Source: Escherichia coli (lineage in GTDB: Bacteria > Pseudomonadota > Gammaproteobacteria > Enterobacterales > Enterobacteriaceae). Taken from it: a stretch of 64,000 bases of DNA. Of this stretch, positions 1 to 51,088 are shown piece by piece (position 1 is the stretch's first letter; the number at the start of each line of letters is the position of its first letter). The translations under genes and the position numbers were made by a program. Location of the stretch: assembly GCF_041886205.1 (NCBI RefSeq), contig NZ_CP169029.1; one strand, written 5' to 3'. The notes beneath the pieces were generated by a model that was given only the letters and a program-made list of their open reading frames with translations, did not search any database and was not told where the DNA came from.

Positions 1-1322
1 TCCATAGCGAACAGCTATTGAACGGCTATCTCATGCTGGCAACGCCGGTTATTAGCCTGTTTCCTGCCATCCTTGCGCAAAACTTCTGGCACCGTTTTCC
101 ACTTTACTGGCAGCGTCTGACGTTGCTGTTAGCCACGGTCACAACAGCTTCATTGCTGAATACCGCCCTGCTCTCCCCTTTTATGTCAGGCCCAATAATG
201 CTGCCGGGTTTGACCTCATTTACCGGAGGCGTATTACTGACGCCGTTTGTCTATCTTATCTTTGAGTTTCTGCGCCAGCAGCATCGCTACCAGCTCCTGG
301 GACTCGATACGCATAATCCCCCCTTGCGTACCTCTTTAATCATCTGGTGTAGCCTGTTTTTTATTATTGGTATCGGCACTCAGATGGTGCTGTCACCTGA
401 AATTGAACGTCTGCTGTTGATCGTAGTTTTTCTACCCAATGTGGTGATGGCGTGGAAATTTGGCTGGCAAGGTGGCGTACTCTCCGGGCTTTTGGGCAGC
501 ATGATGATCACCATCGCCCGCCAGATTGGCGTGGGCTTTAGTAACCTGGTGGAGCTGGAGATTTTCCTCGCGACCCAGGCATTGCTGGGAATTGGCCTGG
601 GCATTGCCATCAGCCGCCAGCAACATCTGGCGCTAAACCTGCACCATTACCGACAACGGCTGGAGGCCGAGCTGGCAGCGCGGCGGGCATTAGCGGAAAA
701 GCTGATCCACACCGAGGAGGACACGCGAAAAAACCTGGCGAGGGAGCTGCACGACGAAATCGGTCAAAACATCACCGCCATTCAGATCCAGTCGCAACTG
801 GTGAAGCGAGCGCGCGATCCGGCGCAAATTCAATCCGCAGCCAGCCAAATCAATGAACTCGCTCGCCGCATTCATCTCTCCACCCGCCAGTTGCTGCGCC
901 AGCTGCGGCCCCCCGCGCTTGATGAACTGACATTCCGCGAAGCGTTGTTGCATCTGATTAATGAATTTGCCTTTAGTGAACGCGGCATTCATTGCCAGTT
1001 TTCCTATCAACTGACCTCCACACCAGAAAACGAAACGGTGCGCTTTACCTTGTATCGGTTATTGCAGGAGTTGCTCAATAACGTCTGTAAACACGCCGAA
1101 GCCAGCGAAGTGACGATTATCCTGCGCCAGCAGGGAGAGATATTGCATCTGGAGGTCAGCGACAACGGCGTGGGGATCGCTTGCGGGAAAATGGCTGGAT
1201 TTGGCATTCAGGGGATGCGTGAGCGCGTCAGTGCCCTGGGCGGCGACTTAACGCTCGAAAAACAGCACGGCACGCGGGTAATTGTTAACTTGCCCACAAT
1301 TTTGCAACAAATCGCCGGATAA
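1..1322 (+). CDS. UhpB-like sensor histidine kinase, 5' end outside window (frame open back to position 3)
   Basis: Hydrophobic N-terminal segments, then H-box HTEEDTRKNLARELHDEIGQ and a C-terminal HATPase region (GMRERVSALGG); resembles UhpB. No in-frame stop upstream of the TTG at 18. Confidence 0.8.
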   Translation, partial: HSEQLLNGYLMLATPVISLFPAILAQNFWHRFPLYWQRLTLLLATVTTASLLNTALLSPFMSGPIMLPGLTSFTGGVLLTPFVYLIFEFLRQQHRYQLLGLDTHNPPLRTSLIIWCSLFFIIGIGTQMVLSPEIERLLLIVVFLPNVVMAWKFGWQGGVLSGLLGSMMITIARQIGVGFSNLVELEIFLATQALLGIGLGIAISRQQHLALNLHHYRQRLEAELAARRALAEKLIHTEEDTRKNLARELHDEIGQNITAIQIQSQLVKRARDPAQIQSAASQINELARRIHLSTRQLLRQLRPPALDELTFREALLHLINEFAFSERGIHCQFSYQLTSTPENETVRFTLYRLLQELLNNVCKHAEASEVTIILRQQGEILHLEVSDNGVGIACGKMAGFGIQGMRERVSALGGDLTLEKQHGTRVIVNLPTILQQIAG

Positions 1323-1394
1323 CCAGGAAAAAATCTTAGGCATCCCGGATTTTCTCTCATCCCCTTTCACTTTCATTTTCATATAGTCAGCAAC

Positions 1395-2711
1395 ATGGAG
1401 ACAACCATGCACGCGCGTTCAGCGAGAGAAATTAATCAATGCTACCGGACATTACGTCCGCGATTGCTGATGTGCATGATTATTGGCTACGCCGCATTTT
1501 ATCTGACGCGAAAAAGCGTGAATTACGTCCTTCCGGCGCTGCAAACCGACCTCGGACTGGATAAAGGCGACATTGGCCTGCTGGGTTCGCTGTTTTATCT
1601 CAGCTACGGATTGTCGAAATTTACCGCCGGACTGTGGCATGACAGCCACGGACAACGCGGTTTTATGGGCGTCGGCTTGTTCACCACCGGATTATTGAAC
1701 GTGGTGTTTGCCTTTGGCGAATCACTTACGCTTTTGCTTGTGGTCTGGACACTGAACGGATTTTTTCAGGGCTGGGGATGGCCACCGTGTGCTCGCTTGC
1801 TGACCCACTGGTACTCACGCAATGAGCGCGGTTTCTGGTGGGGCTGCTGGAATATGTCGATCAACATTGGCGGAGCGATTATTCCGCTAATTAGTGCCTT
1901 TGCCGCCCACTGGTGGGGCTGGCAGGCCGCGATGCTGACACCGGGGATAATCAGCATGGCATTAGGGATCTGGTTAACGCTACAACTCAAAGGCACGCCC
2001 CAGGAAGAGGGATTACCGACAGTTGGTCACTGGCGTCACGATCCGCTGGAGTTACGTCAGGAACAACAAAGTCCGCCGATGGGGCTGTGGCAAATGTTGC
2101 GCACCACCATGCTGCAAAATCCGCTGATCTGGCTACTGGGCGTCTCTTATGTACTGGTTTATGTGATCCGGATTGCGCTTAACGACTGGGGCAATATCTG
2201 GCTGACGGAAAGCCACGGCGTCAACCTGCTCAGCGCCAACGCCACGGTAATGCTGTTTGAAGTGGGCGGCTTACTCGGCGCGTTATTTGCCGGATGGGGA
2301 TCGGATTTGCTGTTTAGCGGGCAACGAGCGCCAATGATTTTGCTGTTCACGCTGGGGTTGATGGTGTCAGTCGCTGCACTGTGGCTGGCACCGGTTCATC
2401 ACTACGCTCTGCTGGCAGTGTGCTTTTTTACCGTAGGCTTTTTCGTCTTTGGTCCACAAATGCTGATTGGACTTGCGGCGGTGGAGTGTGGGCACAAAGC
2501 TGCGGCGGGTTCAATCACCGGATTTCTCGGCCTGTTCGCTTACCTTGGCGCGGCGCTGGCAGGCTGGCCACTGTCGCTGGTCATCGAACGCTACGGCTGG
2601 TCGGGAATGTTCAGTTTACTCTCGGTCGCCGCAGTACTTATGGGTTTACTGCTGATGCCGTTACTGATGGCGGGCATCACCACCACTCACGCTCGAAGGA
2701 TAAAACAATGA
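1395..2711 (+). CDS. UhpC-like MFS sugar-phosphate sensor/transporter (organophosphate:Pi antiporter family)
   Basis: 438 aa multi-helix membrane protein with UhpC/UhpT/GlpT-like N-terminus; 72 bp downstream of the kinase gene. Confidence 0.8.
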   Translation: METTMHARSAREINQCYRTLRPRLLMCMIIGYAAFYLTRKSVNYVLPALQTDLGLDKGDIGLLGSLFYLSYGLSKFTAGLWHDSHGQRGFMGVGLFTTGLLNVVFAFGESLTLLLVVWTLNGFFQGWGWPPCARLLTHWYSRNERGFWWGCWNMSINIGGAIIPLISAFAAHWWGWQAAMLTPGIISMALGIWLTLQLKGTPQEEGLPTVGHWRHDPLELRQEQQSPPMGLWQMLRTTMLQNPLIWLLGVSYVLVYVIRIALNDWGNIWLTESHGVNLLSANATVMLFEVGGLLGALFAGWGSDLLFSGQRAPMILLFTLGLMVSVAALWLAPVHHYALLAVCFFTVGFFVFGPQMLIGLAAVECGHKAAAGSITGFLGLFAYLGAALAGWPLSLVIERYGWSGMFSLLSVAAVLMGLLLMPLLMAGITTTHARRIKQ

Positions 2712-3739
2712 AAATGACCTTTACCTCTACTCTGATTGCTTCTGCCGTTGCGCTGGCGACTTTAACGGGTGCCGCGCAGGCGAAAGGCCGGCTGGTGGTC
2801 TATTGCAGCGCCACCAATGAAATGTGTGAAGCTGAAACCAAAGCGTTTGGCGAGAAATATGATGTGAAAACTTCATTTATCCGCAACGGTTCCGGAAGCA
2901 CCCTGGCAAAAGTCGATGCTGAAAAGAAAAACCCCCAGGCTGACGTCTGGTATGGCGGCACTTTAGACCCGCAATCGCAGGCCGGCGAGATGGGCCTGCT
3001 ACAGGCGTATAAATCCCCTAACCTTGAGCAGATCATGGAGAAATTCCGCGATCCGGCAAAAGTGAAAGGGAATCTGTCCTCTGCCGTATATGTGGGGATC
3101 CTCGGTTTTGGCGTAAACACCGATCGTCTGAAAGAGAAAGACCTGCCGGTGCCGAAGTGCTGGAAAGATCTCACCAAACCGGAATATAAAGGCGAAATTC
3201 AAATTGCCGATCCGCAAAGTTCCGGTACTGCCTACACCGCGCTGGCTACTTTTGCGCAGCTGTGGGGGGAAGATCAGGCCTTTGATTATCTAAAACAACT
3301 GAACGCCAACGTCTCCCAGTATACCAAATCAGGCATAGCCCCGGCACGTAACGCCGCTCGCGGCGAAACGGCGATTGGTATTGGCTTCCTGCATGACTAC
3401 TCGCTGGAAAAAGAACAGGGTGCGCCGCTGGAGTTGATTTCCCCTTGTGAAGGTACGGGCTATGAAATTGGCGGCGTCAGCATTCTGAAAGGCGCGCGCA
3501 ACCTCGACAATGCCAAACTGTTTGTGGACTGGGTATTATCAAAAGAAGCTCAGGAACTGGCGTGGAAGAAAGGGAAGTCTTATCAGATCCTGACCAATAC
3601 CACCGCCGAAACGTCGCCAAATTCGCTGAAGCTCGACGACCTGAAATTAATCAACTACGACATGGATAAATACGGTTCCACGGATGTTCGTAAGGCATTG
3701 ATTAATAAATGGGTTAGCGAAGTGAAGATGGGTAAGTAA
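2708..3739 (+). CDS. afuA: AfuA/FbpA-family periplasmic substrate-binding protein (sugar-phosphate or ferric type)
   Basis: Start MKMTFTSTLIASAVALATLTGAAQA is a signal peptide; ATG overlaps the uhpC-like stop (ATGA). The long ORF 2381-3739 is an upstream extension in the same frame. Confidence 0.8.
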   Translation: MKMTFTSTLIASAVALATLTGAAQAKGRLVVYCSATNEMCEAETKAFGEKYDVKTSFIRNGSGSTLAKVDAEKKNPQADVWYGGTLDPQSQAGEMGLLQAYKSPNLEQIMEKFRDPAKVKGNLSSAVYVGILGFGVNTDRLKEKDLPVPKCWKDLTKPEYKGEIQIADPQSSGTAYTALATFAQLWGEDQAFDYLKQLNANVSQYTKSGIAPARNAARGETAIGIGFLHDYSLEKEQGAPLELISPCEGTGYEIGGVSILKGARNLDNAKLFVDWVLSKEAQELAWKKGKSYQILTNTTAETSPNSLKLDDLKLINYDMDKYGSTDVRKALINKWVSEVKMGK

Positions 3740-3807
3740 ACCCGCATTAGGCGCATTTGCCGGGTGCAGCACAAATGCCTGCCCCGGCCAACCATACCGG
3801 AACTGCT

Positions 3808-5886
3808 ATGTCACAGACACTTGCACTCCATCCCGTGAAAAAGCGGGATGCGATTTTCCTTTGGGTTTTGCTGGGCTGGCTGGCATTTATCCTGTTGCCG
3901 AGCTGGAGTCTCGATTATGGCCTGCTGGAATCCACGAGTGATGAGATCCTCGAGGCTTATGGCTGGTCGCATTTTAATATCAGCTGGCTGTGGTATTTGT
4001 TACCGAGTCTGTTGCTGGTTCGCCCGTTTCGTGAGGCCACACGTGAACAGCGTAGTCGTCATTATTTTGATGCCGGCTGGGCATTGCTCTGTATGGCGTT
4101 TATCGTCATCAGCGCCACCGTGGCTGGACGCGGTTTAGGCTACGCCGCCATCGTGCTGTTTGTTGAATTAGGCGCGATTATGACGCTGGCCTTAACCCGC
4201 CTCGAATGGCTGGGCGGCGACCGCTTCGTGATCGGCTCGCTGATTGCGATTGTGGCGCTGATTGGCATTTTTATCGTCTGGCCGAGCATCGCCATTTTTA
4301 TCCCGATGTTCACCAACGACGCGGGAGAGTTCGCCCCGCTGGCGTTTATGAACGTGCTCTCGCAGGCACATATTGTGCAGGTGATCGTCAACTCTATCGT
4401 CTTGTCGATAGCGGTGGGTATTGGCTGTACCTTCTTCGGTCTGGTACTGGCGATTTATACCACGCGCATCGCCAAACGCAGCGCCATTATTGGCCGCATC
4501 TTTTCCATTCTGCCCATCGTTACACCACCGTTTGTGGTCGGCTTAGGCGTGACACTCATGATGGGGCGCTCCGGCTATATCACGGAGTTTATGGTGGAGT
4601 GGTTTGGGCTGACCAACACCAACTGGCTGTATGGCTTTACCGGGATCTGGCTGGCGCAGGTTCTGGCATTCACGCCAATGGCTTTTATGATCCTCGACGG
4701 GGCCATTAAAACCATTCATCCCTCGCTGGAAGAGGCCTCCTACACCCTGCGCGCCAGCCGCTGGCAAACCTTTAACGGCGTGTTTGTGCCGTTGCTAAAG
4801 CCCGCGCTCGCCAATGCCTTTTTAATCGTCGTGGTACAGTCACTGGCTGATTTCAGTAACCCGCTGGTGCTTGGCGGCAACTTCGACGTACTGGCGACGC
4901 AAATTTACTTCTACATTACCGGCTCGCAGCTGGATTATCAGGCCGCCAGCACGCTTGGTGCTTTCCTGCTGCTGTTCTCGCTGCTGGTGTTCTGCGTCCA
5001 GTATATGTGGATTGGTAAACGCTCTTACGTCACGGTTTCCGGCAAATCCTACCGTGGCGACGTCCAGCCACTACCGGTCACCCTGGTGTGGAGCGTGGTC
5101 GCCATACTTGCGGTATGGATTGCCTTTAACGCCCTGCTCTACGGCAGCATTTTCTACGGCAGCTTCACGGTGAACTGGGGCGTTGACTACACCCTGACGC
5201 TGGATAACTTTATCAAGTTATTTGGTCAGGGGATGAGCGACGGCGCGTGGCCTTCACTGTTGGATACCCTGCTCTACGCCGGGATTGCAGCCCCCATTAC
5301 CGCTATCTTTGGCCTGCTCATCGCCTGGGTGGTGGTGCGTCAACAATTCAAAGGCAAAAAGACCATCGAGTTCACCACCATGCTGTGCTTTGCCGTACCG
5401 GGTACGGTGGCGGGCGTCTCGTATATTCTCGCCTTTAACAGCGCTCCGGTTTATCTCACCGGAACGGCGGCAATTGTGATTATCTCGATGGTGATGCGTA
5501 ACGTTCCGGTGGGCATTCGTGCCGGGATTGCAGGTCTGGGGCAGATCGACAAATCGCTGGATGAAGCCTCACTCAGCCTGCGTGCGGGTTCCCTGCGAAC
5601 CATAACCCACATTTTACTGCCGCTGCTGCGCCCGGCCATTCTCTCGGCCCTGATCTACAGCTTTGTGCGGGCCATCACGACGGTCAGCGCCATCGTCTTT
5701 CTCGTCACGCCGGACACCCGCGTGGCAACAGCCTACATTCTTAACCGCGTTGAAGACGGCGAATATGGCGTAGCTATCGCCTATGGTTCGATTCTGATCG
5801 TGGTGATGCTGGCGATTATTTTCCTCTTTGACTGGCTGATCGGAGAAGCACGTATCTCCCGTTCTAAAGCCAAAAACCAGGCGTAA
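3808..5886 (+). CDS. afuB: AfuB/FbpB-family ABC transporter permease (fused two-domain)
   Basis: About 690 aa polytopic membrane protein; start chosen at MSQTLAL with GGAA upstream; ORF also open from 3757. Confidence 0.75.
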
Positions 5887-5897
5887 TGGAGCGCACT

Positions 5898-6944
5898 ATG
5901 AGTCAGAAAAATTTTGTGGAACTGCGCAACGTCACTAAACGATTCGGCAGTAATACGGTTATCGACAATATCAATCTCACCATTCCACAAGGGCAAATGG
6001 TGACGCTGCTCGGCCCTTCCGGCTGTGGCAAAACCACCATTCTGCGTCTGGTTGCCGGGCTGGAAAAACCGAGCGAAGGGCAAATTTTTATTGATGGCGA
6101 AGATGTCACGCATCGTTCCATTCAACAGCGCGATATCTGCATGGTGTTTCAGTCATACGCTCTGTTCCCGCATATGTCGCTGGGTGAAAACGTTGGCTAC
6201 GGGCTGAAGATGCTTGGCGTGTCGCGTAGCGAAGTGAAACAGCGGGTGAAGGAGGCGCTGGCAATGGTGGATCTGGAAGGCTTCGAGGACCGCTATGTCG
6301 ATCAGATTTCCGGTGGTCAGCAACAGCGTGTGGCGCTGGCCCGCGCGTTGATCCTCAAACCGAAGGTACTGCTGTTTGATGAGCCGTTAAGTAACCTCGA
6401 TGCCAACCTGCGCCGCAGTATGCGCGATAAGATCCGCGAGCTGCAAAAGCAGTTTAATATCACGTCGCTCTACGTCACTCACGATCAAAGTGAAGCTTTC
6501 GCGGTGTCCGACACCGTACTGGTGATGAATAAAGGTCACATCATGCAGATTGGTTCACCGCAAGATCTCTATCGTCAGCCCGCCTCCCGCTTTATGGCAA
6601 GTTTTATGGGCGACGCCAACCTGTTCCCGGCGAACTTTAGCGAAGAGGATGTCGATATCTACGGTTATCGCCTGCCGCGCGCGGCGCATTTCCCGGCGCA
6701 AGGTAGCGGCACCGTCGGCGTTCGCCCGGAAGCCATCACCTTAAGCAATCACGGCGAAGAGAGTCAGCGTTGTGTTATTCGCCATGTCGCCTACATGGGG
6801 CCGCAGTACGAAGTGACCGTAGAGTGGCATGGACAGGAGATTTTATTACAAGTAAACGCCACCCGTTTACAGCCCGATATTGGTGAGCACTATTACCTCG
6901 AAATCCATCCTTACGGGATGTTTGTTTTAGCGGATGCGGCATAA
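5898..6944 (+). CDS. afuC: AfuC/FbpC ABC transporter ATP-binding protein
   Basis: Walker [10 protein letters not shown], signature [15 protein letters not shown], Walker B LLFDEP; 348 aa from MSQKNF; an in-frame ATG at 5886 overlaps the afuB stop. Confidence 0.9.
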
Positions 6945-6957
6945 AAATAGCACATAA

Positions 6958-6985
6958 ACGGTCCCCACCTGTCTTGAGGGACCGT
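6958..6985 (+). terminator. Hairpin downstream of afuC (ACGGTCCC-12 nt-GGGACCGT), no clear U-tract
   Basis: Perfect 8 bp inverted repeat 14 bp after the afuC stop. Confidence 0.3.
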
Positions 6986-7026
6986 TCACCTGGTTAGGCT
7001 TCGGACAACAATTATTCTCCAGTGTT

Positions 7027-7078
7027 ATATACTATAGGGGGGTATGCATTGACATATAGCATACCCCCCTATAGTATA
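7027..7078 (+). promoter_or_regulatory. frmRAB promoter/operator: long dyad with G6/C6 tracts (FrmR operator)
   Basis: TATACTATAGGGGGGTATGC ... GCATACCCCCCTATAGTATA, a near-perfect 52 bp inverted repeat ending 25 bp before frmR. Confidence 0.7.
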
Positions 7079-7103
7079 TTGCATGCAGATGATGAGGTGC
7101 GAA

Positions 7104-7379
7104 ATGCCCAGTACTCCGGAAGAGAAGAAAAAGGTCCTTACTCGAGTTCGTCGTATTCGAGGGCAGATTGATGCTCTGGAACGGTCGCTGGAGGGTGATG
7201 CCGAATGCCGTGCCATACTCCAACAGATCGCTGCCGTTCGGGGCGCGGCTAACGGGCTGATGGCAGAAGTGCTTGAAAGCCATATCCGGGAAACGTTTGA
7301 CCGAAATGACTGCTACAGCCGCGAAGTCAGCCAATCCGTTGACGACACTATTGAACTGGTTCGTGCCTATCTGAAATAG
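7104..7379 (+). CDS. frmR: FrmR formaldehyde-responsive repressor (CsoR/RcnR family)
   Basis: 91 aa from [21 protein letters not shown]; the listed ORF 7083-7379 is an upstream extension. Confidence 0.9.
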
Positions 7380-7383
7380 CTGA

Positions 7384-8523
<1,140 letters not shown>

Positions 8524-28806: not shown

Positions 28807-28888
28807 TTGCCTGATGCGCTACGCTTATCAGGCCTACGAGTTCAGTGCTCTACGTAGGCCGGATAAGGCGTTCACGCCGCATCCGGCA
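28807..28888. repeat. REP cluster
   Basis: TGCCTGATGCGCTACGCTTATCAGGCCTACGAG ... TACGTAGGCCGGATAAGGCGTTCACGCCGCATCCGGCA. Confidence 0.85.
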
Positions 28889-28926
28889 TAAACTACGCTC
28901 GCTTTGTCAACACACAGCCCAGCCGA

Positions 28927-43207: not shown

Positions 43208-44164
43208 TTAAACCACCCGATCCAGCCCCAACATGCCGCGAGCCTGAATGAAACAGAGCAGCAACGTTCCCCATAAGGCCATCGTCAGGTAGGGGCTTAT
43301 ACCGAGAATATTGAAGCCGCTTTCAATAATTTGCAGAAGAAACAGCGCCAGCACCATACCAATTATCCGCCCGCTGCCGCCGTCCGGATTAACCCCGCCG
43401 AGTACTGCCGCGAGGATTGACACCAGCAAGTACGATTCGCCATAAGAGGCCTTAGCCGAGTTGAGTTTCGACATCATCAAAAATGCCGCTACCGCACAAA
43501 GCAAGGCGGAAATGACATAAACCCAAATCAGCACCCGACGAGTGTTAATGCCGGAGTAAAGTGTTGCTCGTTCGTTAGACCCAATCAGGTAAATGGCTTT
43601 ACCGAGCGGCGTTTTCTCCAGCAATATCCACAGCCCCAGTGCCACTGCGGCAAACAACCACATCGGTAGCGGAATACCGAACCATTGCGCATGATTCAAC
43701 CACAGCACCCATGAGGGATAATTGGCAATGGCGCTACCACCTGTCACCAGAATATTTATCCCTTTGAGCAACGTCATCATCCCAAGCGTTGCAAGAATTG
43801 GCGACACTCGAATACCAGCAATCAATACGCCGTTACATAAACCGATTATCACCGCCGCGCCAGCGCCCGCCAGTAACGTAGCGACAACCGTAGCAATACC
43901 CGGTGGATACTGAGTCGCCACCCACGCCATCACCAGTGAACAGGCGTTAGCAGTGGCTATAATTGACAAGTTAATGCCACCGCAAAGCATGGTCACCGCC
44001 ATAGCCAACGCCAGAATGCCCAGCACGGGCATTTGCGAAGCGACGGACTGGAAATTACTTATCGACCAGAAAATCTCCGGCATAGTAATGCTGAACGCGG
44101 CAACAGTTAGCACCAGCAGGCCGATCAAGTAAAACTCAACGTTATTACGCCACGATTTTTTCAT
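43208..44164 (-). CDS. Sugar ABC transporter permease (CUT2, RbsC/LsrD-like)
   Basis: Polytopic membrane protein; start at MKKSWRNN overlaps the upstream permease stop by 4 bp; ORF open to 44194. Confidence 0.85.
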   Translation of the reverse strand: MKKSWRNNVEFYLIGLLVLTVAAFSITMPEIFWSISNFQSVASQMPVLGILALAMAVTMLCGGINLSIIATANACSLVMAWVATQYPPGIATVVATLLAGAGAAVIIGLCNGVLIAGIRVSPILATLGMMTLLKGINILVTGGSAIANYPSWVLWLNHAQWFGIPLPMWLFAAVALGLWILLEKTPLGKAIYLIGSNERATLYSGINTRRVLIWVYVISALLCAVAAFLMMSKLNSAKASYGESYLLVSILAAVLGGVNPDGGSGRIIGMVLALFLLQIIESGFNILGISPYLTMALWGTLLLCFIQARGMLGLDRVV

Positions 44165-45132
44165 AGCAGACTCCGGTTCTGATGCTGACTCCACGCCGTG
44201 GCACTAATGCTGGCAACGATGATGATGCCGGTGATCAATGTTTGCCAGTAAGACGAGACTCCCAATAAATTTAGCCCGTTTTGCATCACTGCCAACAACA
44301 CCACGCCGAGCAAAGTACCGGTTAACGTGCCGCGCCCGCCGAGCAAACTAGTGCCGCCAAGCACCACCGCAGCCAGTACTGTCAGCTCATAACCCAGAAG
44401 AGAATCGGGGGCGACAGTCATCACCGTCCACGACTGCACTACACCCGCAGCGCCAGACATCAATCCCATATAGCCATAGACGAAAAGTTGCAGTTTCAGC
44501 ACGCTAAAGCCGATGCGACTGGCTGATTCGCGGTTCCCGCCAAGGGCATAAATTTTGCGCCCTACACTGGTGAAATTCATGATAAACGCTGTTAGCAGCA
44601 CCACCGTAATCATGGCGATCAGCGGCAGACCAAGGCCATAGTCATAGCCATCAGCATCGGTATACTTGAACAACATAACCCCCTGCTCAAACCACGGCGG
44701 AAAGTCGTACAGCCACACACCTTTACTCAACCATAACAGCAGGCCATAGAAAATATTCAGCGTCGAGATAGTGATGATGATAGAAGGCACCCGTAGGCGA
44801 TTAACCAGTAAGGCGTTAATTAAGCCAAGTAAAATGCCGATGCAGCCCGCCAGTGCAAACGCGACAGCGAAGTTGCCACCAATTTTTTGCAGCAACAGCA
44901 CCATGCCGTATTGCGCAATGATGGTCATTGCTGGAAACGAAATATCAATTCCACCGGAAATCAACACCACAAACAAACCACAGGCGAGAATAGTCAACAT
45001 GGCATAGTTATTGGCGAGATCGTACAAATTACCGAATGTCAGAAACTCGTCGCTGCGCCAGGCAAGGCCAACAAACATCACCACAATCAGTAATGCCAGC
45101 CAGAATTCATGGCGTTTTTTCAGTTCAGCCAT
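44161..45132 (-). CDS. Sugar ABC transporter permease (CUT2, RbsC/LsrC-like)
   Basis: 323 aa polytopic membrane protein; MAELKKRHEFWLALLIVVMFVGLAW. Confidence 0.85.
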   Translation of the reverse strand: MAELKKRHEFWLALLIVVMFVGLAWRSDEFLTFGNLYDLANNYAMLTILACGLFVVLISGGIDISFPAMTIIAQYGMVLLLQKIGGNFAVAFALAGCIGILLGLINALLVNRLRVPSIIITISTLNIFYGLLLWLSKGVWLYDFPPWFEQGVMLFKYTDADGYDYGLGLPLIAMITVVLLTAFIMNFTSVGRKIYALGGNRESASRIGFSVLKLQLFVYGYMGLMSGAAGVVQSWTVMTVAPDSLLGYELTVLAAVVLGGTSLLGGRGTLTGTLLGVVLLAVMQNGLNLLGVSSYWQTLITGIIIVASISATAWSQHQNRSLL

Positions 45133-46609
45133 TTACCACCTCCGCAATCCTGGCCTGAGAACTGCTGTCAGGCAGGAAGCTATGGGTGATCTGACCTTTT
45201 TGCATTACCAAAATCCGGTGGCTTTGATACCACGCTTCTTCAATTTCATCGCAGATCATCAATACCGCAATGCCATGAGCCGCCAGATCGCTGATAATGC
45301 CGTATATTCCTGCTTTGTTGGCGATATCAACACCGACTGTCGGGCTATCGAGAATCAACAGTCGTGGCCCAATCGCCAGCCATTTGGCGATCGATACTCG
45401 CTGCGCGTTACCACCAGAAAGCGTATTCACCGGAAGATGAGGATCAGAGACTTTGATGGTCAATGCCTTGATTAGCCTGTCCACCAGGTCACGCACTTTA
45501 GTTTCACTCAGAAAGCCGAAGCGATCTTTTACCTTGTGAAAAACAGTGCTAATGATGTTGTCTTCAATAGATTGCGCCATCACCAAACCGCGCGACATGC
45601 GATCTTCCGAAACATAACCAATACCGTGGCGGATGGCGTCCTGGTTACTATGCAGTGTAACCGGCTGGCCGTTGATGAGGATCTCGCCAGCATCCGGTCG
45701 GGTCATACCAAACAGACTCAGACATAATTCCGTGCGCCCCGCACCAAGCAGGCCAACAATCGATACCACTTCGCCCGCTTCCACCCGCAAGTTAATATTT
45801 AGATATTCCCCATGACGACTTAAATTACGCACCTCCAGCACCGGGGTGCTGGATTTTCCCTGCCACAACTCTCGCACCTGATATTCAAACTCCTGGCCGG
45901 TCATCAGGAAACCGAGTTGTTTTGTGGTCATCTCTGCAGCCGGAAAAGTCCCGACCAGCTCACCATCTTTCAGCACTGAAATACGGTCGGAAACTTCCAT
46001 CACTTCTTCCAGACGATGACTGACGAAGACCACGCAGATCCCGCGTTCACGCAATTGATGCACCACCTGTAATAACCCTTGCACTTCCTGATGGGTCAGC
46101 GAAGCGGTTGGTTCATCCATCACGATCAACCGTGCGTCCTGCGCCAGTGCACGGCAAATTGCCACCAGCTGACAGCGGGCAATTGAAAGCTCAGAAACGA
46201 GCGTATCCAGTGGCAATGTGACGTTAATACTAGTCATTGCCGCCTGCGCCACCTCACGCAGACGACGGCGGTTAACAAACAGACCGTGGTGATAGTGATT
46301 CACGGCGATATTCTCCCAGACACTCAGGTTAGGAAATAAAGAGAGGTCCTGATAAATCACCTGAATCCCCTGCGCCACCGAAGCGGCTGGTGTCAGCTTT
46401 GACCAGTTTTTCCCACCAAGCGTAATTTCCGCTCCCTCATCCGGGCGATAAACACCGGACATAATTTTAATCAACGTCGATTTACCACAGCCGTTTTGTC
46501 CGGCAAGGCAGTGCACTTCACCCGACATAAAGTCGAGAGAAACATCGCGCAGCGCTCGCGTGGCATGAAACGTTTTGTTGATATGACGAAGGGAAAGGAA
46601 GGTTTCCAT
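45125..46609 (-). CDS. Sugar ABC transporter ATP-binding protein, two fused NBDs (RbsA/LsrA-like)
   Basis: Walker A GQNGCGKST and second-domain GLLGAGRTE; signature LSGGNAQRV; start may be at 46624. Confidence 0.9.
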   Translation of the reverse strand: METFLSLRHINKTFHATRALRDVSLDFMSGEVHCLAGQNGCGKSTLIKIMSGVYRPDEGAEITLGGKNWSKLTPAASVAQGIQVIYQDLSLFPNLSVWENIAVNHYHHGLFVNRRRLREVAQAAMTSINVTLPLDTLVSELSIARCQLVAICRALAQDARLIVMDEPTASLTHQEVQGLLQVVHQLRERGICVVFVSHRLEEVMEVSDRISVLKDGELVGTFPAAEMTTKQLGFLMTGQEFEYQVRELWQGKSSTPVLEVRNLSRHGEYLNINLRVEAGEVVSIVGLLGAGRTELCLSLFGMTRPDAGEILINGQPVTLHSNQDAIRHGIGYVSEDRMSRGLVMAQSIEDNIISTVFHKVKDRFGFLSETKVRDLVDRLIKALTIKVSDPHLPVNTLSGGNAQRVSIAKWLAIGPRLLILDSPTVGVDIANKAGIYGIISDLAAHGIAVLMICDEIEEAWYQSHRILVMQKGQITHSFLPDSSSQARIAEVVNG

Positions 46610-46657
46610 AACATCCCCTGGCAATAAGAATCGGGGCTTTCGCCCCGAAGAAATGGA

Positions 46658-47644
46658 TTAATAAAGTGAGTCGATATTGTCTTTGTTGACCAGTAATACC
46701 TTATGGAAACGGATAATTCGCTTATCCATATCTACGTCGGCCTTACCCAGATTCTGCATTTCTAATCCAGGTTTGATCTCTTCACCCTTCAGCAACGTGC
46801 TGGCGACGGCTGCGAGTGCGTAACCTGCAGAGGCCGGATCGTAAGTAATCCCTTCGGTGATATCACCACTTTTAATCAGTGATGCCGCCTGTGAAGGGAT
46901 CATCATGCCATAGACTGCGACTTTATTTTTCGCCCGTTTCTCTTTCACCGCACGTCCCGCGCCAATCGGACCGTTTGAACCAAAGGAGACAACCGCTTTC
47001 AAGTCAGGATAGGTTTTCATCAGGTCCAGTGTGGTACGACGTGAGTCATCCACACTCTCGGCAACCGGCATGCGGCGGGTAACTTCATGCATATCCGGGT
47101 AATGCTCTTTCTGGTATTTCACCAGCAAGTCAGCCCATAAGTTATGCTGCGGCACGGTCAAACTACCCACGTAAATCACATAGCCGCCCTTGCCCCCCAT
47201 GCGTTTCGCCATATGCTCAACATATTCAGCGGCAAATTTTTCGTTATCAATGATTTCGATATCCCAGTTAGCACTTGGCTGACCGGGGGATTCGTTGGTC
47301 AGAACCACAATTCCGGCATCTCGCGCTTTTTTGAATACCGGTTCCAGCACGTTGGCATCGTTTGGCACGATAGTAATTGCATTAACCTTACGGGCGATTA
47401 AATCCTCAATAATTTTAACTTGTTGCGGAGCATCAGTACTTGAAGGCCCCACCTGTGAGGCATTAACACCAAAGGCTTTACCCGCCTCAACCACACCTTC
47501 GCCCATGCGATTAAACCACGGCATACCATCGACTTTAGAAATATTCACCACGATTTTTTCCGCTGCCTGGAGCGGCGCAGAAATTAGCGCAGCGCCTAAT
47601 AACAGCGAAGACACCATATTGATAACAAAACGTTTATTCATCAT
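46658..47644 (-). CDS. Periplasmic sugar-binding protein (type I PBP, LsrB/RbsB-like)
   Basis: 328 aa with signal peptide MMNKRFVINMVSSLLLGAALISAPLQA; C-terminus RIIRFHKVLLVNKDNIDSLY resembles LsrB. Confidence 0.85.
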   Translation of the reverse strand: MMNKRFVINMVSSLLLGAALISAPLQAAEKIVVNISKVDGMPWFNRMGEGVVEAGKAFGVNASQVGPSSTDAPQQVKIIEDLIARKVNAITIVPNDANVLEPVFKKARDAGIVVLTNESPGQPSANWDIEIIDNEKFAAEYVEHMAKRMGGKGGYVIYVGSLTVPQHNLWADLLVKYQKEHYPDMHEVTRRMPVAESVDDSRRTTLDLMKTYPDLKAVVSFGSNGPIGAGRAVKEKRAKNKVAVYGMMIPSQAASLIKSGDITEGITYDPASAGYALAAVASTLLKGEEIKPGLEMQNLGKADVDMDKRIIRFHKVLLVNKDNIDSLY

Positions 47645-47877
47645 TTCAGCCTCATTGCAGGGTAGTCAGGAAGTGTTCGCCCAAATTAGCGCGCTGGAGA
47701 GAATAAGAATTTTCGAATATTTTTATGCAGAATAAACAGCTCTATTTCAGGCAGCTATTAAAAATATGGTTATAAATATGGACAAAACGGGCAGCAATAA
47801 TAAGTGTGACATTCATCACGTAAAAAACAGCAAAATAAACAAAATTAGCGATATTTTATGTTTGTGAGCTTATTTCG

Positions 47878-47899
47878 TGTAGATAAATAGTTATCTACA
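47878..47899. promoter_or_regulatory. Perfect palindrome TGTAGATAA-ATAG-TTATCTACA
   Basis: 9 bp perfect arms at the 3' end of the ASCH gene, about 235 bp upstream of the ABC operon start. Confidence 0.4.
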
Positions 47900-48305
47900 C
47901 AACGTCAATAAGGGCATATTCTTCAAAGATAACGTCCATTTCTGGTGAATAGCTTCCTTCTGCCTGGAAAAAACGACGGTGTTCATTACGCCAATATTCA
48001 AGACTGAGGTCACCTTCACCTTCCTTACGGGCAAGCTCCGCGGTGACATCAGAAAAGCGCAGTAAATGCAGGCCAATCACTCTGATAACACATACAGGCT
48101 CACCACAGCTATTTTCTACAATCTTATACTCACCAATCATCGGAAATGCGTTGTCTTCAATACATCCCGCCAGCGAACCACAGGAAGCTGTTTTAACACC
48201 AGTCGCAATCAACGTTGCGAGGTGATCGGCCAACGCGGCTGAATCGCCAAAAGTACAAAAGGAAGCATGGGGATATTTTTGTGAGAATTTTTCTTTTATG
48301 GTCAT
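47895..48305 (-). CDS. ASCH-domain (PUA-like) protein, possible small amidohydrolase
   Basis: 136 aa from MTIKEKF; ASFCTFGD and GVKTASCGSL resemble ASCH-domain proteins such as YqfB; ORF open to 48335. Confidence 0.55.
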   Translation of the reverse strand: MTIKEKFSQKYPHASFCTFGDSAALADHLATLIATGVKTASCGSLAGCIEDNAFPMIGEYKIVENSCGEPVCVIRVIGLHLLRFSDVTAELARKEGEGDLSLEYWRNEHRRFFQAEGSYSPEMDVIFEEYALIDVV

Positions 48306-50994: not shown

Positions 50995-51078
50995 CTGCCT
51001 GATGCGCTACGCTTATCAGGCCTACAATTCTCGGGCCATTCGTAGGCCGGATAAGGCGTTCACGCCGCATCCGGCATA
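50995..51078. repeat. REP cluster between yahI and yahG
   Basis: TGCCTGATGCGCTACGCTTATCAGGCCTACA ... GTAGGCCGGATAAGGCGTTCACGCCGCATCCGGCA. Confidence 0.85.
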
Positions 51079-51088
51079 AACATGTAAG

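Follow-up and report, generated by a model that had tools for sequence, protein, structure and literature searches.

A UhpABC-like sensory system colinear with genes of a predicted sugar-phosphate importer, AfuABC, on O-island 20 of a non-O157 Escherichia coli

Genes and features of the locus

The window (the whole stretch of E. coli DNA that was analysed, 64,000 nucleotides) opens inside a six-gene cassette that encodes, in order, a UhpA-like response regulator (FusR), a UhpB-like MASE1 kinase (FusK), a UhpC-like MFS receptor (z0461), AfuA, AfuB and AfuC. The features, with the basis of each assignment, are as follows.

1,112 nt upstream of base 1, no strand: left edge of the island, 38 nt upstream of tauA (blastn against K-12)
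1..1322, + strand: 3' 1,322 nt of the gene for a UhpB-like sensor histidine kinase, the FusK orthologue (PGAP, Pfam, comparison with UhpB)
1323..1339, + strand: predicted response-regulator box, CCAGGAAAAAATCTTAG (footprinting, match to PuhpT)
1355..1362, + strand: TCTCATCC, an element around the -35 position (near-invariant across genera)
1382..1387, + strand: TATAGT, predicted -10 hexamer of the promoter ahead of the uhpC-like-afuABC operon (conserved across orthologues)
1407..2711, + strand: UhpC-like MFS organophosphate receptor, the z0461 orthologue, 434 aa (NCBIfam, comparison with UhpC)
2708..3739, + strand: afuA, 343 aa, predicted to bind hexose and heptose phosphates in the periplasm; its signal peptide ends AQA|KG (PDB matches, ligand residues)
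3808..5886, + strand: afuB, 692 aa, a double permease fused from two BPD_transp_1-type halves (NCBIfam, PGAP)
5898..6944, + strand: afuC, ABC ATPase, 348 aa (NCBIfam, PGAP start)
6957..6986, + strand: hairpin after afuC, AACGGUCCCC...GGGACCGUU (folding energy -17.5 kcal/mol, z-score just -1.4)
7011..7012, no strand: right edge of the island, K-12 homology resuming from 7012, just 5' of the frmR promoter/operator

The kinase gene is cut by the window boundary: as PGAP annotates it in strain wlxctx60 (99.98% identical), it encodes 513 aa from a coding sequence that starts 220 nt before base 1 of the window, and a candidate reading frame from the TTG at 18 was rejected as an artefact of this truncation. 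The partner response regulator (209 aa), which the original prediction had proposed to look for upstream, is encoded there, wholly outside the window, by a gene that shares 1 nt with the kinase start (TAATG). An alternative start of the UhpC-like gene at 1395 gives 438 aa. The afuA start codon overlaps the UhpC-like stop (ATGA) as had been claimed, the TGA occupying 2709-2711, with an AAGGA Shine-Dalgarno sequence 7 nt upstream of afuA. NCBIfam permease models match AfuB twice each, at residues ~145-400 and ~430-680, and AfuC scores 699 bits against the NF008513 cut-off of 496. The TAATG motif that the original prediction placed between afuB and afuC does exist (stop TAA at 5884-5886, alternative ATG at 5886-5888), but it presupposes the less likely afuC start; the ATG at 5898, which separates the two genes by 11 nt without overlap, is likelier because it is the PGAP choice, because the NCBIfam profile begins at residue 5 of the longer reading frame, and because GGAG stands 6 nt upstream. 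Within the operon, no promoter or terminator signal exceeded the level of shuffled sequence. The hairpin at 6957..6986 may mark the 3' end of the operon; it is without a T-run and was not called by the terminator scan. The next gene, frmR (7104-7379), follows afuC after a gap of 159 nt.

Identity and distribution of the island

The locus is not new: it is the already described E. coli O-island 20 (OI-20) cassette, on which FusKR and afuABC have been placed together (Sit et al. 2015). Genes, order and chromosomal site (tauA|frmR) are all as in O-island 20 of EHEC O157:H7 (fusR z0463, fusK z0462, z0461, afuABC), whereas the window represents a non-O157 lineage with 97.5% nucleotide identity to that island. 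Protein identities to O157:H7 are 100% for AfuA, 99.5% for the regulator, 98.6% for AfuB and 97.1% for the kinase; the UhpC-like protein is 99.5% identical from end to end, and the frameshift that had been considered possible in its gene is not there. By blastn of the strain against K-12, an 8.1-kb island (8,124 bp) between tauA and frmR stands in place of the 5,220 bp of yaiO-yaiX::IS2-yaiP-yaiS, and in genomes that lack the island the match to the query starts only at 7012. The block had rightly been called strain-variable, the island being carried by 519 of 5,426 complete E. coli genomes; the recollections of K-12 were also right, in that yaiO–yaiS occupies the site there with frmR adjoining yaiO, and the only afu remnant lies elsewhere, as an IS1-truncated afuB' plus afuC (annotated fbpC) of 85.6% identity. 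Just 10 of the 519 carrier genomes belong to the allele group of the window (at least 99% identity), and its nearest complete genomes are those of isolates from bear, frog, pig and poultry. Overall, the original prediction held for the Uhp-like sensors, the AfuA ligand and the variability of the block, and missed that the locus is OI-20/FusKR of EHEC.

Every one of the 80 Enterobacterales loci with sufficient flanking sequence, from about 27 genera, has the six genes in this order, and they are likewise colinear in Pectobacterium, Vibrio fluvialis and Photobacterium profundum. The gap between the receptor gene and afuA is at most 20 nt in 63 of 78 loci, 23 of which have the ATGA overlap, and synteny with Uhp-like sensor genes was found in every locus examined outside Pasteurellaceae.

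A Uhp-like sensory system

All three sensory proteins are Uhp-like, as had been predicted for the kinase and the receptor. The regulator is of the NarL/FixJ type (receiver domain and GerE helix-turn-helix), is 48% identical to K-12 UhpA, keeps the phospho-acceptor motif DI(A/S)MPD, and has the recognition helix of UhpA (KTVHVHRAN). The kinase combines MASE1, HisKA_3 and HATPase_c domains (Pfam) and is 34% identical to K-12 UhpB, with the H-box ARELHDEIGQ aligning with ARELHDDIGQ of UhpB; its window-truncated sequence reaches 334 bits with the NCBIfam UhpB model, for which the cut-off is 408. The receptor passes the cut-off of the UhpC model NF008661 (587 versus 564 bits) and is 53% identical to K-12 UhpC and only 29% to UhpT. 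Equivalents of GlpT R45, K80 and R269 are retained in it (R35, K71 and R255) and in 79 of 79 orthologues, R35 and R255 corresponding to R46 and R266 of UhpC. At the position of GlpT His165, where UhpC, UhpT, GlpT and the Vibrio receptors have His, the receptor has Ile152, a change specific to the Enterobacterales cassette; its ligand could therefore differ from that of UhpC.

The K-12 UhpABC-UhpT system is a three-component sensor with the same domain set and a 1-nt overlap of regulator and kinase genes (TGATG there, TAATG here), but its kinase is the distant relative noted above and the transporter that it regulates is the antiporter UhpT, where the cassette has an ABC importer. Carriers of the island also have the canonical uhpABCT, so that both systems coexist.

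Predicted promoter of the uhpC-like-afuABC operon

The gap between the kinase and receptor genes holds a predicted promoter that is homologous to PuhpT of K-12 and is furnished with a UhpA-type box. This box, at 1323..1339, is a degenerate half-palindrome (ACCAGGAA-N3-TTCCTGGT) whose centre precedes the predicted start of transcription (~1394) by ~62 nt, and it occurs as a single copy within the 64-kb window. Phylogenetic footprinting over 74 distinct orthologous gaps showed it to be conserved at a fixed distance from a TCTCAT element; in Buttiauxella, Erwinia, Rahnella, Pectobacterium, Vibrio and Photobacterium the palindrome is perfect. Its match to the reverse strand of the K-12 uhpT promoter (CCTGGAAAATTTCTTAG) extends to 14 of 17 positions, a level reached by none of 5,000 shuffles. 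The architecture of the two promoters also agrees: the box lies at about -62 to -64, its centre is 51 nt from the -10 hexamer here and 52 nt in PuhpT, and the element at 1355..1362 precedes the -10 hexamer by 27 nt, as TCTCAGG does in PuhpT. According to published work on PuhpT, a CAP site is centred at -103 and the UhpA sites, strong and weak ones side by side, lie ~30 bp further downstream. The element at 1355..1362 probably serves the regulator as the weak, downstream site in a promoter of class II type. A GGAG Shine-Dalgarno sequence (1397-1400) is kept across orthologues. The predicted promoter has no consensus -35, and a scan for the sigma-70 consensus found no full promoter there, as expected for a promoter that depends on an activator. 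Here the predicted regulated promoter precedes the receptor gene, which puts the receptor inside the operon; the regulated promoter of K-12 stands between uhpC and uhpT.

AfuA and its predicted ligand

In the PDB, AfuA matches the structures of Actinobacillus pleuropneumoniae AfuA (PDB 4R72-75; E = 2e-169, 1.9e-169 for 4R72), which is 76% identical over the whole mature protein, and the Vibrio protein 8X1A, which is 79% identical. The A. pleuropneumoniae crystals hold glucose 6-phosphate (G6P), F6P or S7P, bound with a Kd of 8-57 nM (Sit et al. 2015; PDB 4R72-4R75), and sugar-phosphate transport by AfuABC has been shown experimentally in C. rodentium (Sit et al. 2015). Five ligand residues of the A. 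pleuropneumoniae protein that have been validated by mutagenesis (S37, T150, H205, D206 and E229) are all kept, as S62, T174, H229, D230 and E253, without variation in any of 80 orthologues. The pyridoxal-5'-phosphate binding protein P5PA (PDB 6WCE) is a paralogue in the same subfamily with a phosphorylated small-molecule ligand (E = 2e-109); the AfuA encoded here is much nearer to AfuA than to P5PA and carries the sugar-contacting His, Asp and Glu of AfuA. Judged by these residues, AfuA is predicted to bind sugar phosphates and not iron, and we infer from its orthologues that AfuABC of E. coli is a transporter of such compounds.

The order afuA-afuB-afuC is shared with A. pleuropneumoniae, but the afu loci of Pasteurellaceae (Actinobacillus, Basfia) differ from the cassette in being without adjacent Uhp-like genes and in having a CRP-like site (TGTGA-N6-TCACG) upstream of afuA.

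Proposed regulation of AfuABC

We estimate a probability of roughly 0.7 that the cassette couples hexose-phosphate sensing of the Uhp type to import by AfuABC, in the following manner. Periplasmic hexose phosphate would be bound by the UhpC-like receptor, and the ligand-bound receptor would cause the kinase to phosphorylate the regulator; once phosphorylated, the regulator would occupy two sites, the palindromic box (about -62) and the TCTCA element (near -35), and would thereby activate one transcript that spans the receptor gene and afuABC. With the receptor gene inside the activated transcript, the sensor would be subject to positive feedback, and the cassette would act beside the canonical uhpABCT of the same genomes. 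Control of the importer by the sensory system had been proposed in the original prediction; colinearity and the PuhpT-like promoter lend it strong support, the regulatory link being one that we infer from sequence.

Vibrio homologues of UhpABC reportedly control the transporter with which they are associated. The comparison system is the hexose-6-phosphate cluster VCA0682-VCA0687 of V. cholerae (Moisi et al. 2013), the relatives of which in V. fluvialis and Photobacterium share the six-gene order and, as here, have a palindromic box directly after the kinase stop together with the TCTCAT element. AfuA of the Vibrio type is 77-79% identical to AfuA of the cassette, whereas the sensory proteins are more diverged (regulator 56-60%, kinase 41-42%, receptor 54%), the Vibrio receptor has His where Ile is found here, and a gap of 106-168 nt separates the receptor gene from afuA in V. 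fluvialis and Photobacterium in place of the overlap.

Alternative explanations

The alternative that survives best is that the model published for EHEC is complete: FusK would sense fucose, FusR would repress ler, the fuc genes and z0461, and z0461 would import fucose, with afuABC a mere neighbour and not a positive target. As later papers relate it, Pacheco et al. (2012) observed autophosphorylation of FusK in response to L-fucose and repression by FusR of z0461, ler and the fuc genes, z0461 aiding the import of fucose; reviews and a transcriptome paper report the study in these terms. This model thus differs from our proposal in ligand (fucose) and in regulatory sign (repression). It would apply to sensory proteins that are 97-99.5% identical to those here, and the His-to-Ile change in the receptor leaves room for another ligand; however, a transporter of a non-phosphorylated sugar has no evident need of two phosphate-clamping arginines, which are invariant in the 79 orthologues, and the promoter ahead of z0461 has the activator-dependent architecture of PuhpT. 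Specificity of FusKR to O157, or an origin in Enterococcus, clashes with the observed distribution. The cassette stays with afuABC across two bacterial orders, mostly in non-pathogens, in which the LEE would not be expected; repression of the LEE could therefore not be the ancestral role. On balance we consider it unlikely that the fucose model is the whole account, and the evidence suggests a sensor that would detect sugar phosphates rather than only fucose.

It is considerably less probable still that the UhpC-like protein is a working antiporter of the UhpT type, served by the kinase and regulator in place of AfuABC. Its membership in the organophosphate:phosphate antiporter family, its transport-essential arginines and the transport role that EHEC work, as related by later papers, assigns to z0461 are compatible with this; its much greater identity to the sensor UhpC than to UhpT and its score above the UhpC-specific cut-off are not, and where UhpT has D388 and K391 it has T371 and L374, resembling T382 and V385 of UhpC. 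Moreover, a complete ABC importer for the same substrate class always follows directly behind.

That AfuABC is a ferric-iron importer with Uhp-like neighbours by coincidence is effectively refuted, even though PGAP calls afuC 'fbpC, ferric ABC transporter ATP-binding protein', the depositors of 4R72 and 8X1A labelled them Fe3+ or iron(III) binding proteins, and AfuA shares a fold class, an ABC operon layout and distant homology (E about 1e-11 to 1e-13 for FbpA/HitA) with FbpABC/HitABC/SfuABC. None of the four FbpA iron ligands, which we take to be His9, Glu57, Tyr195 and Tyr196 (H. influenzae numbering; reference sequence identical to 1D9V/1MRP), is kept in AfuA, which has T36, G84, L228 and H229 at the aligned positions (MAFFT and BLASTP), as against five of five sugar-phosphate ligands. 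This alignment, which the original prediction had proposed for the question of ligand that it left undecided, came out on the sugar-phosphate side that it had favoured; the sugar phosphates in the crystals of the 76%-identical protein and the Uhp-like synteny outside Pasteurellaceae also argue against iron.

Implications for FusKR

There is also a broader reading, to which we give about an even chance: by origin and primary function, FusKR and z0461 would constitute a second hexose-phosphate sensor of the Uhp type, with z0461-afuABC as its direct positive target through the PuhpT-like promoter. Cross-talk with uhpT may also occur, because the regulator has the recognition helix and the box of UhpA. 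Should this reading be correct, the reported effects that involve fucose and the LEE would be of a secondary kind or confined to particular lineages, or would call for re-examination.

The tauA-frmR island

The genes between tauA and frmR form a six-gene cassette that is, to near certainty, an island of the type known in EHEC O157:H7 as O-island 20 (OI-20). The original prediction, in which UhpB-like and UhpC-like sensors coupled to an AfuABC importer precede frmR, is supported in part: the gene block is confirmed, but the kinase gene is cut by the window edge and the start of afuC shifts to 5898. Strain wlxctx60, colinear with the window at 99.98% identity, supplied the sequence beyond the edge; there the partner response regulator that had been expected upstream lies directly before the window.

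Features of the cassette and its downstream neighbour (window coordinates)
Just upstream of the window: partner response regulator, 209 aa; its stop codon and the kinase start overlap by 1 base (TAATG)
220 nt before window base 1 to 1322: sensor kinase gene, 513 aa (start taken from wlxctx60)
1323-1339: box CCAGGAAAAAATCTTAG, a predicted regulator-binding site
1395 or 1407 to 2711: UhpC-like MFS gene
2708-3739: afuA
3808-5886: afuB
5886 or 5898 to 6944: afuC, with 5898 the probable start
7104-7379: frmR

The overlap of the MFS stop codon with the afuA start (ATGA) is real, and a good Shine-Dalgarno sequence precedes afuA. The overlap proposed for afuB and afuC (TAATG) exists in the sequence, but for afuC the ATG at 5898 is preferred because it has a GGAG Shine-Dalgarno sequence, is the choice of PGAP and coincides with the beginning of the NCBIfam profile. 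An Rfam scan of window positions 1-8000 gave zero matches, and a hairpin 3' of afuC, considered as a distinctive element, was statistically undistinctive (z-score -1.4).

In the O157:H7 chromosome these six genes occupy the identical position, and the DNA is 97.5% identical, the encoded proteins being 99.5% (regulator), 97.1% (kinase), 99.5% (MFS protein), 100% (AfuA), 98.6% (AfuB) and 99.4% (AfuC) identical. EHEC afuABC has been assigned to O-island 20 together with the fucose-sensing FusKR (Sit et al. 2015, PMC4546632), and later papers describe z0461 as encoding a fucose transporter and equate z0462 with fusK and z0463 with fusR. The locus was therefore already known, its novelty is accordingly low, and by itself it adds nothing new; earlier publications cover the island, the substrate of the transporter and the pair of kinase and regulator, in EHEC (2001 and 2012), V. 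cholerae (2013), and A. pleuropneumoniae and C. rodentium (2015).

The island is an 8,124-bp segment extending from tauA to the frmR promoter. Homology to K-12 stops 38 nt upstream of tauA and restarts at window position 7012, and the island takes the place of the K-12 segment comprising yaiO, yaiX::IS2, yaiP and yaiS (5,220 bp); no mobility genes or repeats were seen in the annotation at its edges. Two statements in the original prediction, that in K-12 frmR is next to yaiO and only afu remnants exist elsewhere, prove correct. The remnant (85.6% identity) consists of an afuB' fragment truncated by IS1 and a complete afuC (annotated fbpC), and it adjoins mmuM; in MG1655 (4362504-4363909) its surroundings are IS elements and yagB, in the CP4-6 region, and its orphan ATPase gene is intact. 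Among complete E. coli genomes, 519 of 5,426 contain the island, on the chromosome in every case; carriers include O157:H7 (among them EDL933), O55:H7, O145 and isolates from pig, poultry, baboon, deer and humans, and canonical uhpC is also present in carrier genomes.

Beyond the island, positions 7027-7079 contain an extended inverted repeat that is nearly perfect (ATACTATAGGGGGGTATGC...GCATACCCCCCTATAGTAT). It overlaps the region's one strong sigma-70 promoter (TTGACA-17-TAGTAT, 7049-7077) and presumably serves as the operator at which FrmR controls frmRAB. Between yahJ and yahK, genes that adjoin each other in K-12, lie a gene for an ASCH-domain protein and four genes for a sugar ABC transporter, the binding protein of which is annotated as 'autoinducer 2' type (approximately 43208-48305, minus strand); this may be another transporter insertion that varies between strains. 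At 57420-57422, 3,259 bp are absent relative to wlxctx60: ehaA, which encodes an autotransporter adhesin, lacks its 3' two-thirds, and the truncated gene is fused to the final ~50 nt of pdeL, the remainder of which is missing. A repeat of ~87 nt that occurs twice, in inverted orientation (28808-28893 and 50996-51081, 91% identity), is probably a REP/BIME-type intergenic element.

Ligand of AfuA

AfuA is 76% identical (E = 2e-169) to A. pleuropneumoniae AfuA, the crystal structures of which (4R72-4R75) contain G6P, F6P or S7P, bound with nanomolar affinity, and 79% identical to the Vibrio structure 8X1A. Mutation of S37, T150, H205, D206 or E229 in the A. pleuropneumoniae protein weakened or abolished binding; the aligned residues are S62, T174, H229, D230 and E253, and all five are kept in 80 of 80 collected AfuA orthologues. 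The original prediction left the choice between sugar phosphate and iron to an alignment with FbpA. The iron ligands of H. influenzae FbpA, H9, E57, Y195 and Y196, align with T36, G84, L228 and H229 of AfuA by both MAFFT and BLASTP, and the FbpA reference sequence was confirmed to be identical to 1D9V/1MRP. With none of the four FbpA ligands present, the interpretation of AfuABC as an iron transporter is rejected. Judged by its aligned residues, AfuA is a sugar-phosphate binder and not an iron binder, and the 'ferric' labels on afu genes are legacy annotation. Import of G6P, F6P and S7P has been shown for the AfuABC systems of A. pleuropneumoniae and C. rodentium.

Sensor proteins

The domain set of the kinase is MASE1, HisKA_3 and HATPase_c, and its identity to UhpB is 34%. 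Between the regulator and UhpA identity is 48%, with the same recognition helix (KTVHVHRAN) in both. The MFS protein shares 53% identity with UhpC and 29% with UhpT, and it scores above the NCBIfam cut-off for UhpC. The 1-base overlap of the regulator and kinase genes (TAATG) likewise has a counterpart in K-12 uhpA/uhpB (TGATG). R35, K71 and R255 of the MFS protein correspond to the two arginines and one lysine that bind phosphate in GlpT/UhpT, and are invariant in 79 orthologues. Ile152 (codon 1860-1862) replaces a His of UhpC, UhpT, GlpT (His165) and the afu-linked receptors of Vibrio and Photobacterium; it is invariant in 79 of 79 Enterobacterales orthologues and in Pectobacterium. A supposed signalling residue of UhpC, 'D388', was dropped, that position being Phe in UhpC.

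Coupling of the sensor to the importer

Three lines of comparative evidence, namely synteny, spacing and a conserved predicted promoter, lead us to infer that the sensor is wired to the importer. When one genome per species was scanned, an AfuA relative was encoded in 281 species, and the best 80 loci, spanning ~27 Enterobacterales genera, were examined. The order regulator-kinase-MFS-afuA-afuB-afuC holds in all of these 80 wherever the contig allows, and also in Pectobacterium, Vibrio fluvialis and Photobacterium profundum. The MFS gene and afuA overlap by 4 nt in 23 loci and by 1 nt in 8, the gap between them is no more than 20 nt in 63 of 78, and the kinase-MFS gap is ~72-96 nt in nearly every locus. 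In contrast, Pasteurellaceae (Actinobacillus, Basfia) possess afuABC without Uhp-like sensor genes. In two Pasteurellaceae loci (L085, 7756-8001; L086, 7779-8001) a motif, TTTGTGAAC-N5-CTCACGGTAT, lies upstream of afuA, and its resemblance to a CRP site suggests a different regulatory logic there; Basfia has two afuA paralogues in tandem.

The conserved parts of the kinase-MFS gap are the box, a near-invariant GTCTCATCC element, a TATAGT -10 and a GGAG Shine-Dalgarno sequence; the stretch downstream of TCTCATCC varies between genera, without conservation. The box is perfectly palindromic in many genera (ACCAGGAA-N3-TTCCTGGT or ACTAGGAA-N3-TTCCTAGT), and in Vibrio and Photobacterium the box and the TCTCAT element recur directly after the kinase stop codon. 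Transcription in E. coli is predicted to start near 1394. At 14 of 17 positions the E. coli box agrees with the K-12 uhpT promoter read on the other strand, a score reached by 0 of 5,000 shuffles. Its centre is 51 nt before the -10, compared with 52 nt in the uhpT promoter, and a TCTCA element is found 27 nt before the -10 in both. In the published account a CAP site centred at -103 is followed ~30 bp downstream by the UhpA sites, a strong upstream site adjoining a weak downstream one, and this layout fits the predicted geometry of the island promoter.

A sigma-70 and terminator scan of window positions 1-7500 found only the frmR promoter to exceed shuffled expectation, and the predicted operon promoter has no consensus -35; because such a promoter would be activator-dependent, the missing -35 is expected and the sigma-70 scan is uninformative. 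The box has no second copy in the 64-kb window or the 23-kb locus, the stretch before the regulator gene included, so there is no sign of autoregulation of regulator and kinase through it. The Vibrio system is described as Pho-regulated; in the island promoter, inspected by eye for a Pho box, TCA-containing repeats are not at 11-bp spacing.

In the proposed mechanism, external hexose phosphate would be perceived by the UhpC-like receptor, which would act through the kinase on the regulator, and the phosphorylated regulator would bind the box and activate a transcript of the receptor gene and afuABC. Unlike in K-12, the regulated promoter of the island precedes the receptor gene, and for this reason receptor and AfuABC would be induced together. 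In Vibrio, induction mediated by the UhpABC homologues was reportedly shown by Moisi in 2013. We consider a Uhp-type system probable overall (roughly 0.7), and this particular action of the sensor on receptor-afuABC likely to a slightly lesser degree.

Relation to the FusKR model

The published model, as later papers summarise Pacheco et al. 2012, has FusK sensing fucose, FusR repressing ler, z0461 and the fuc genes, and z0461 optimising fucose import. It is retained as a rival because sequence can decide neither the ligand nor the sign of regulation; we regard it as unlikely to describe this cassette. The FusR motif of the ler promoter, as quoted in later literature, has by eye no convincing similarity to the box. 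The later papers also call FusKR specific to O157:H7 and perhaps derived from Enterococcus faecalis, which misfits a distribution across several lineages of E. coli, the Enterobacterales genera and Vibrionaceae.

By every sequence criterion tested, the FusKR/z0461 genes appear instead to form the sensing part of a cassette for hexose-phosphate import, one that is common to dozens of mostly non-pathogenic genera of Enterobacterales and Vibrionaceae. This identity is the only point of interest in the locus; it is unreconciled with a widely cited model of host, microbiota and pathogen in which fucose acts through FusKR to repress the LEE, and the predicted promoter makes testing easy and inexpensive. 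If sugar phosphates induce the cassette, O157 specificity or an Enterococcus origin would fall, and the ecology of OI-20 would shift towards scavenging of sugar phosphates in the gut.
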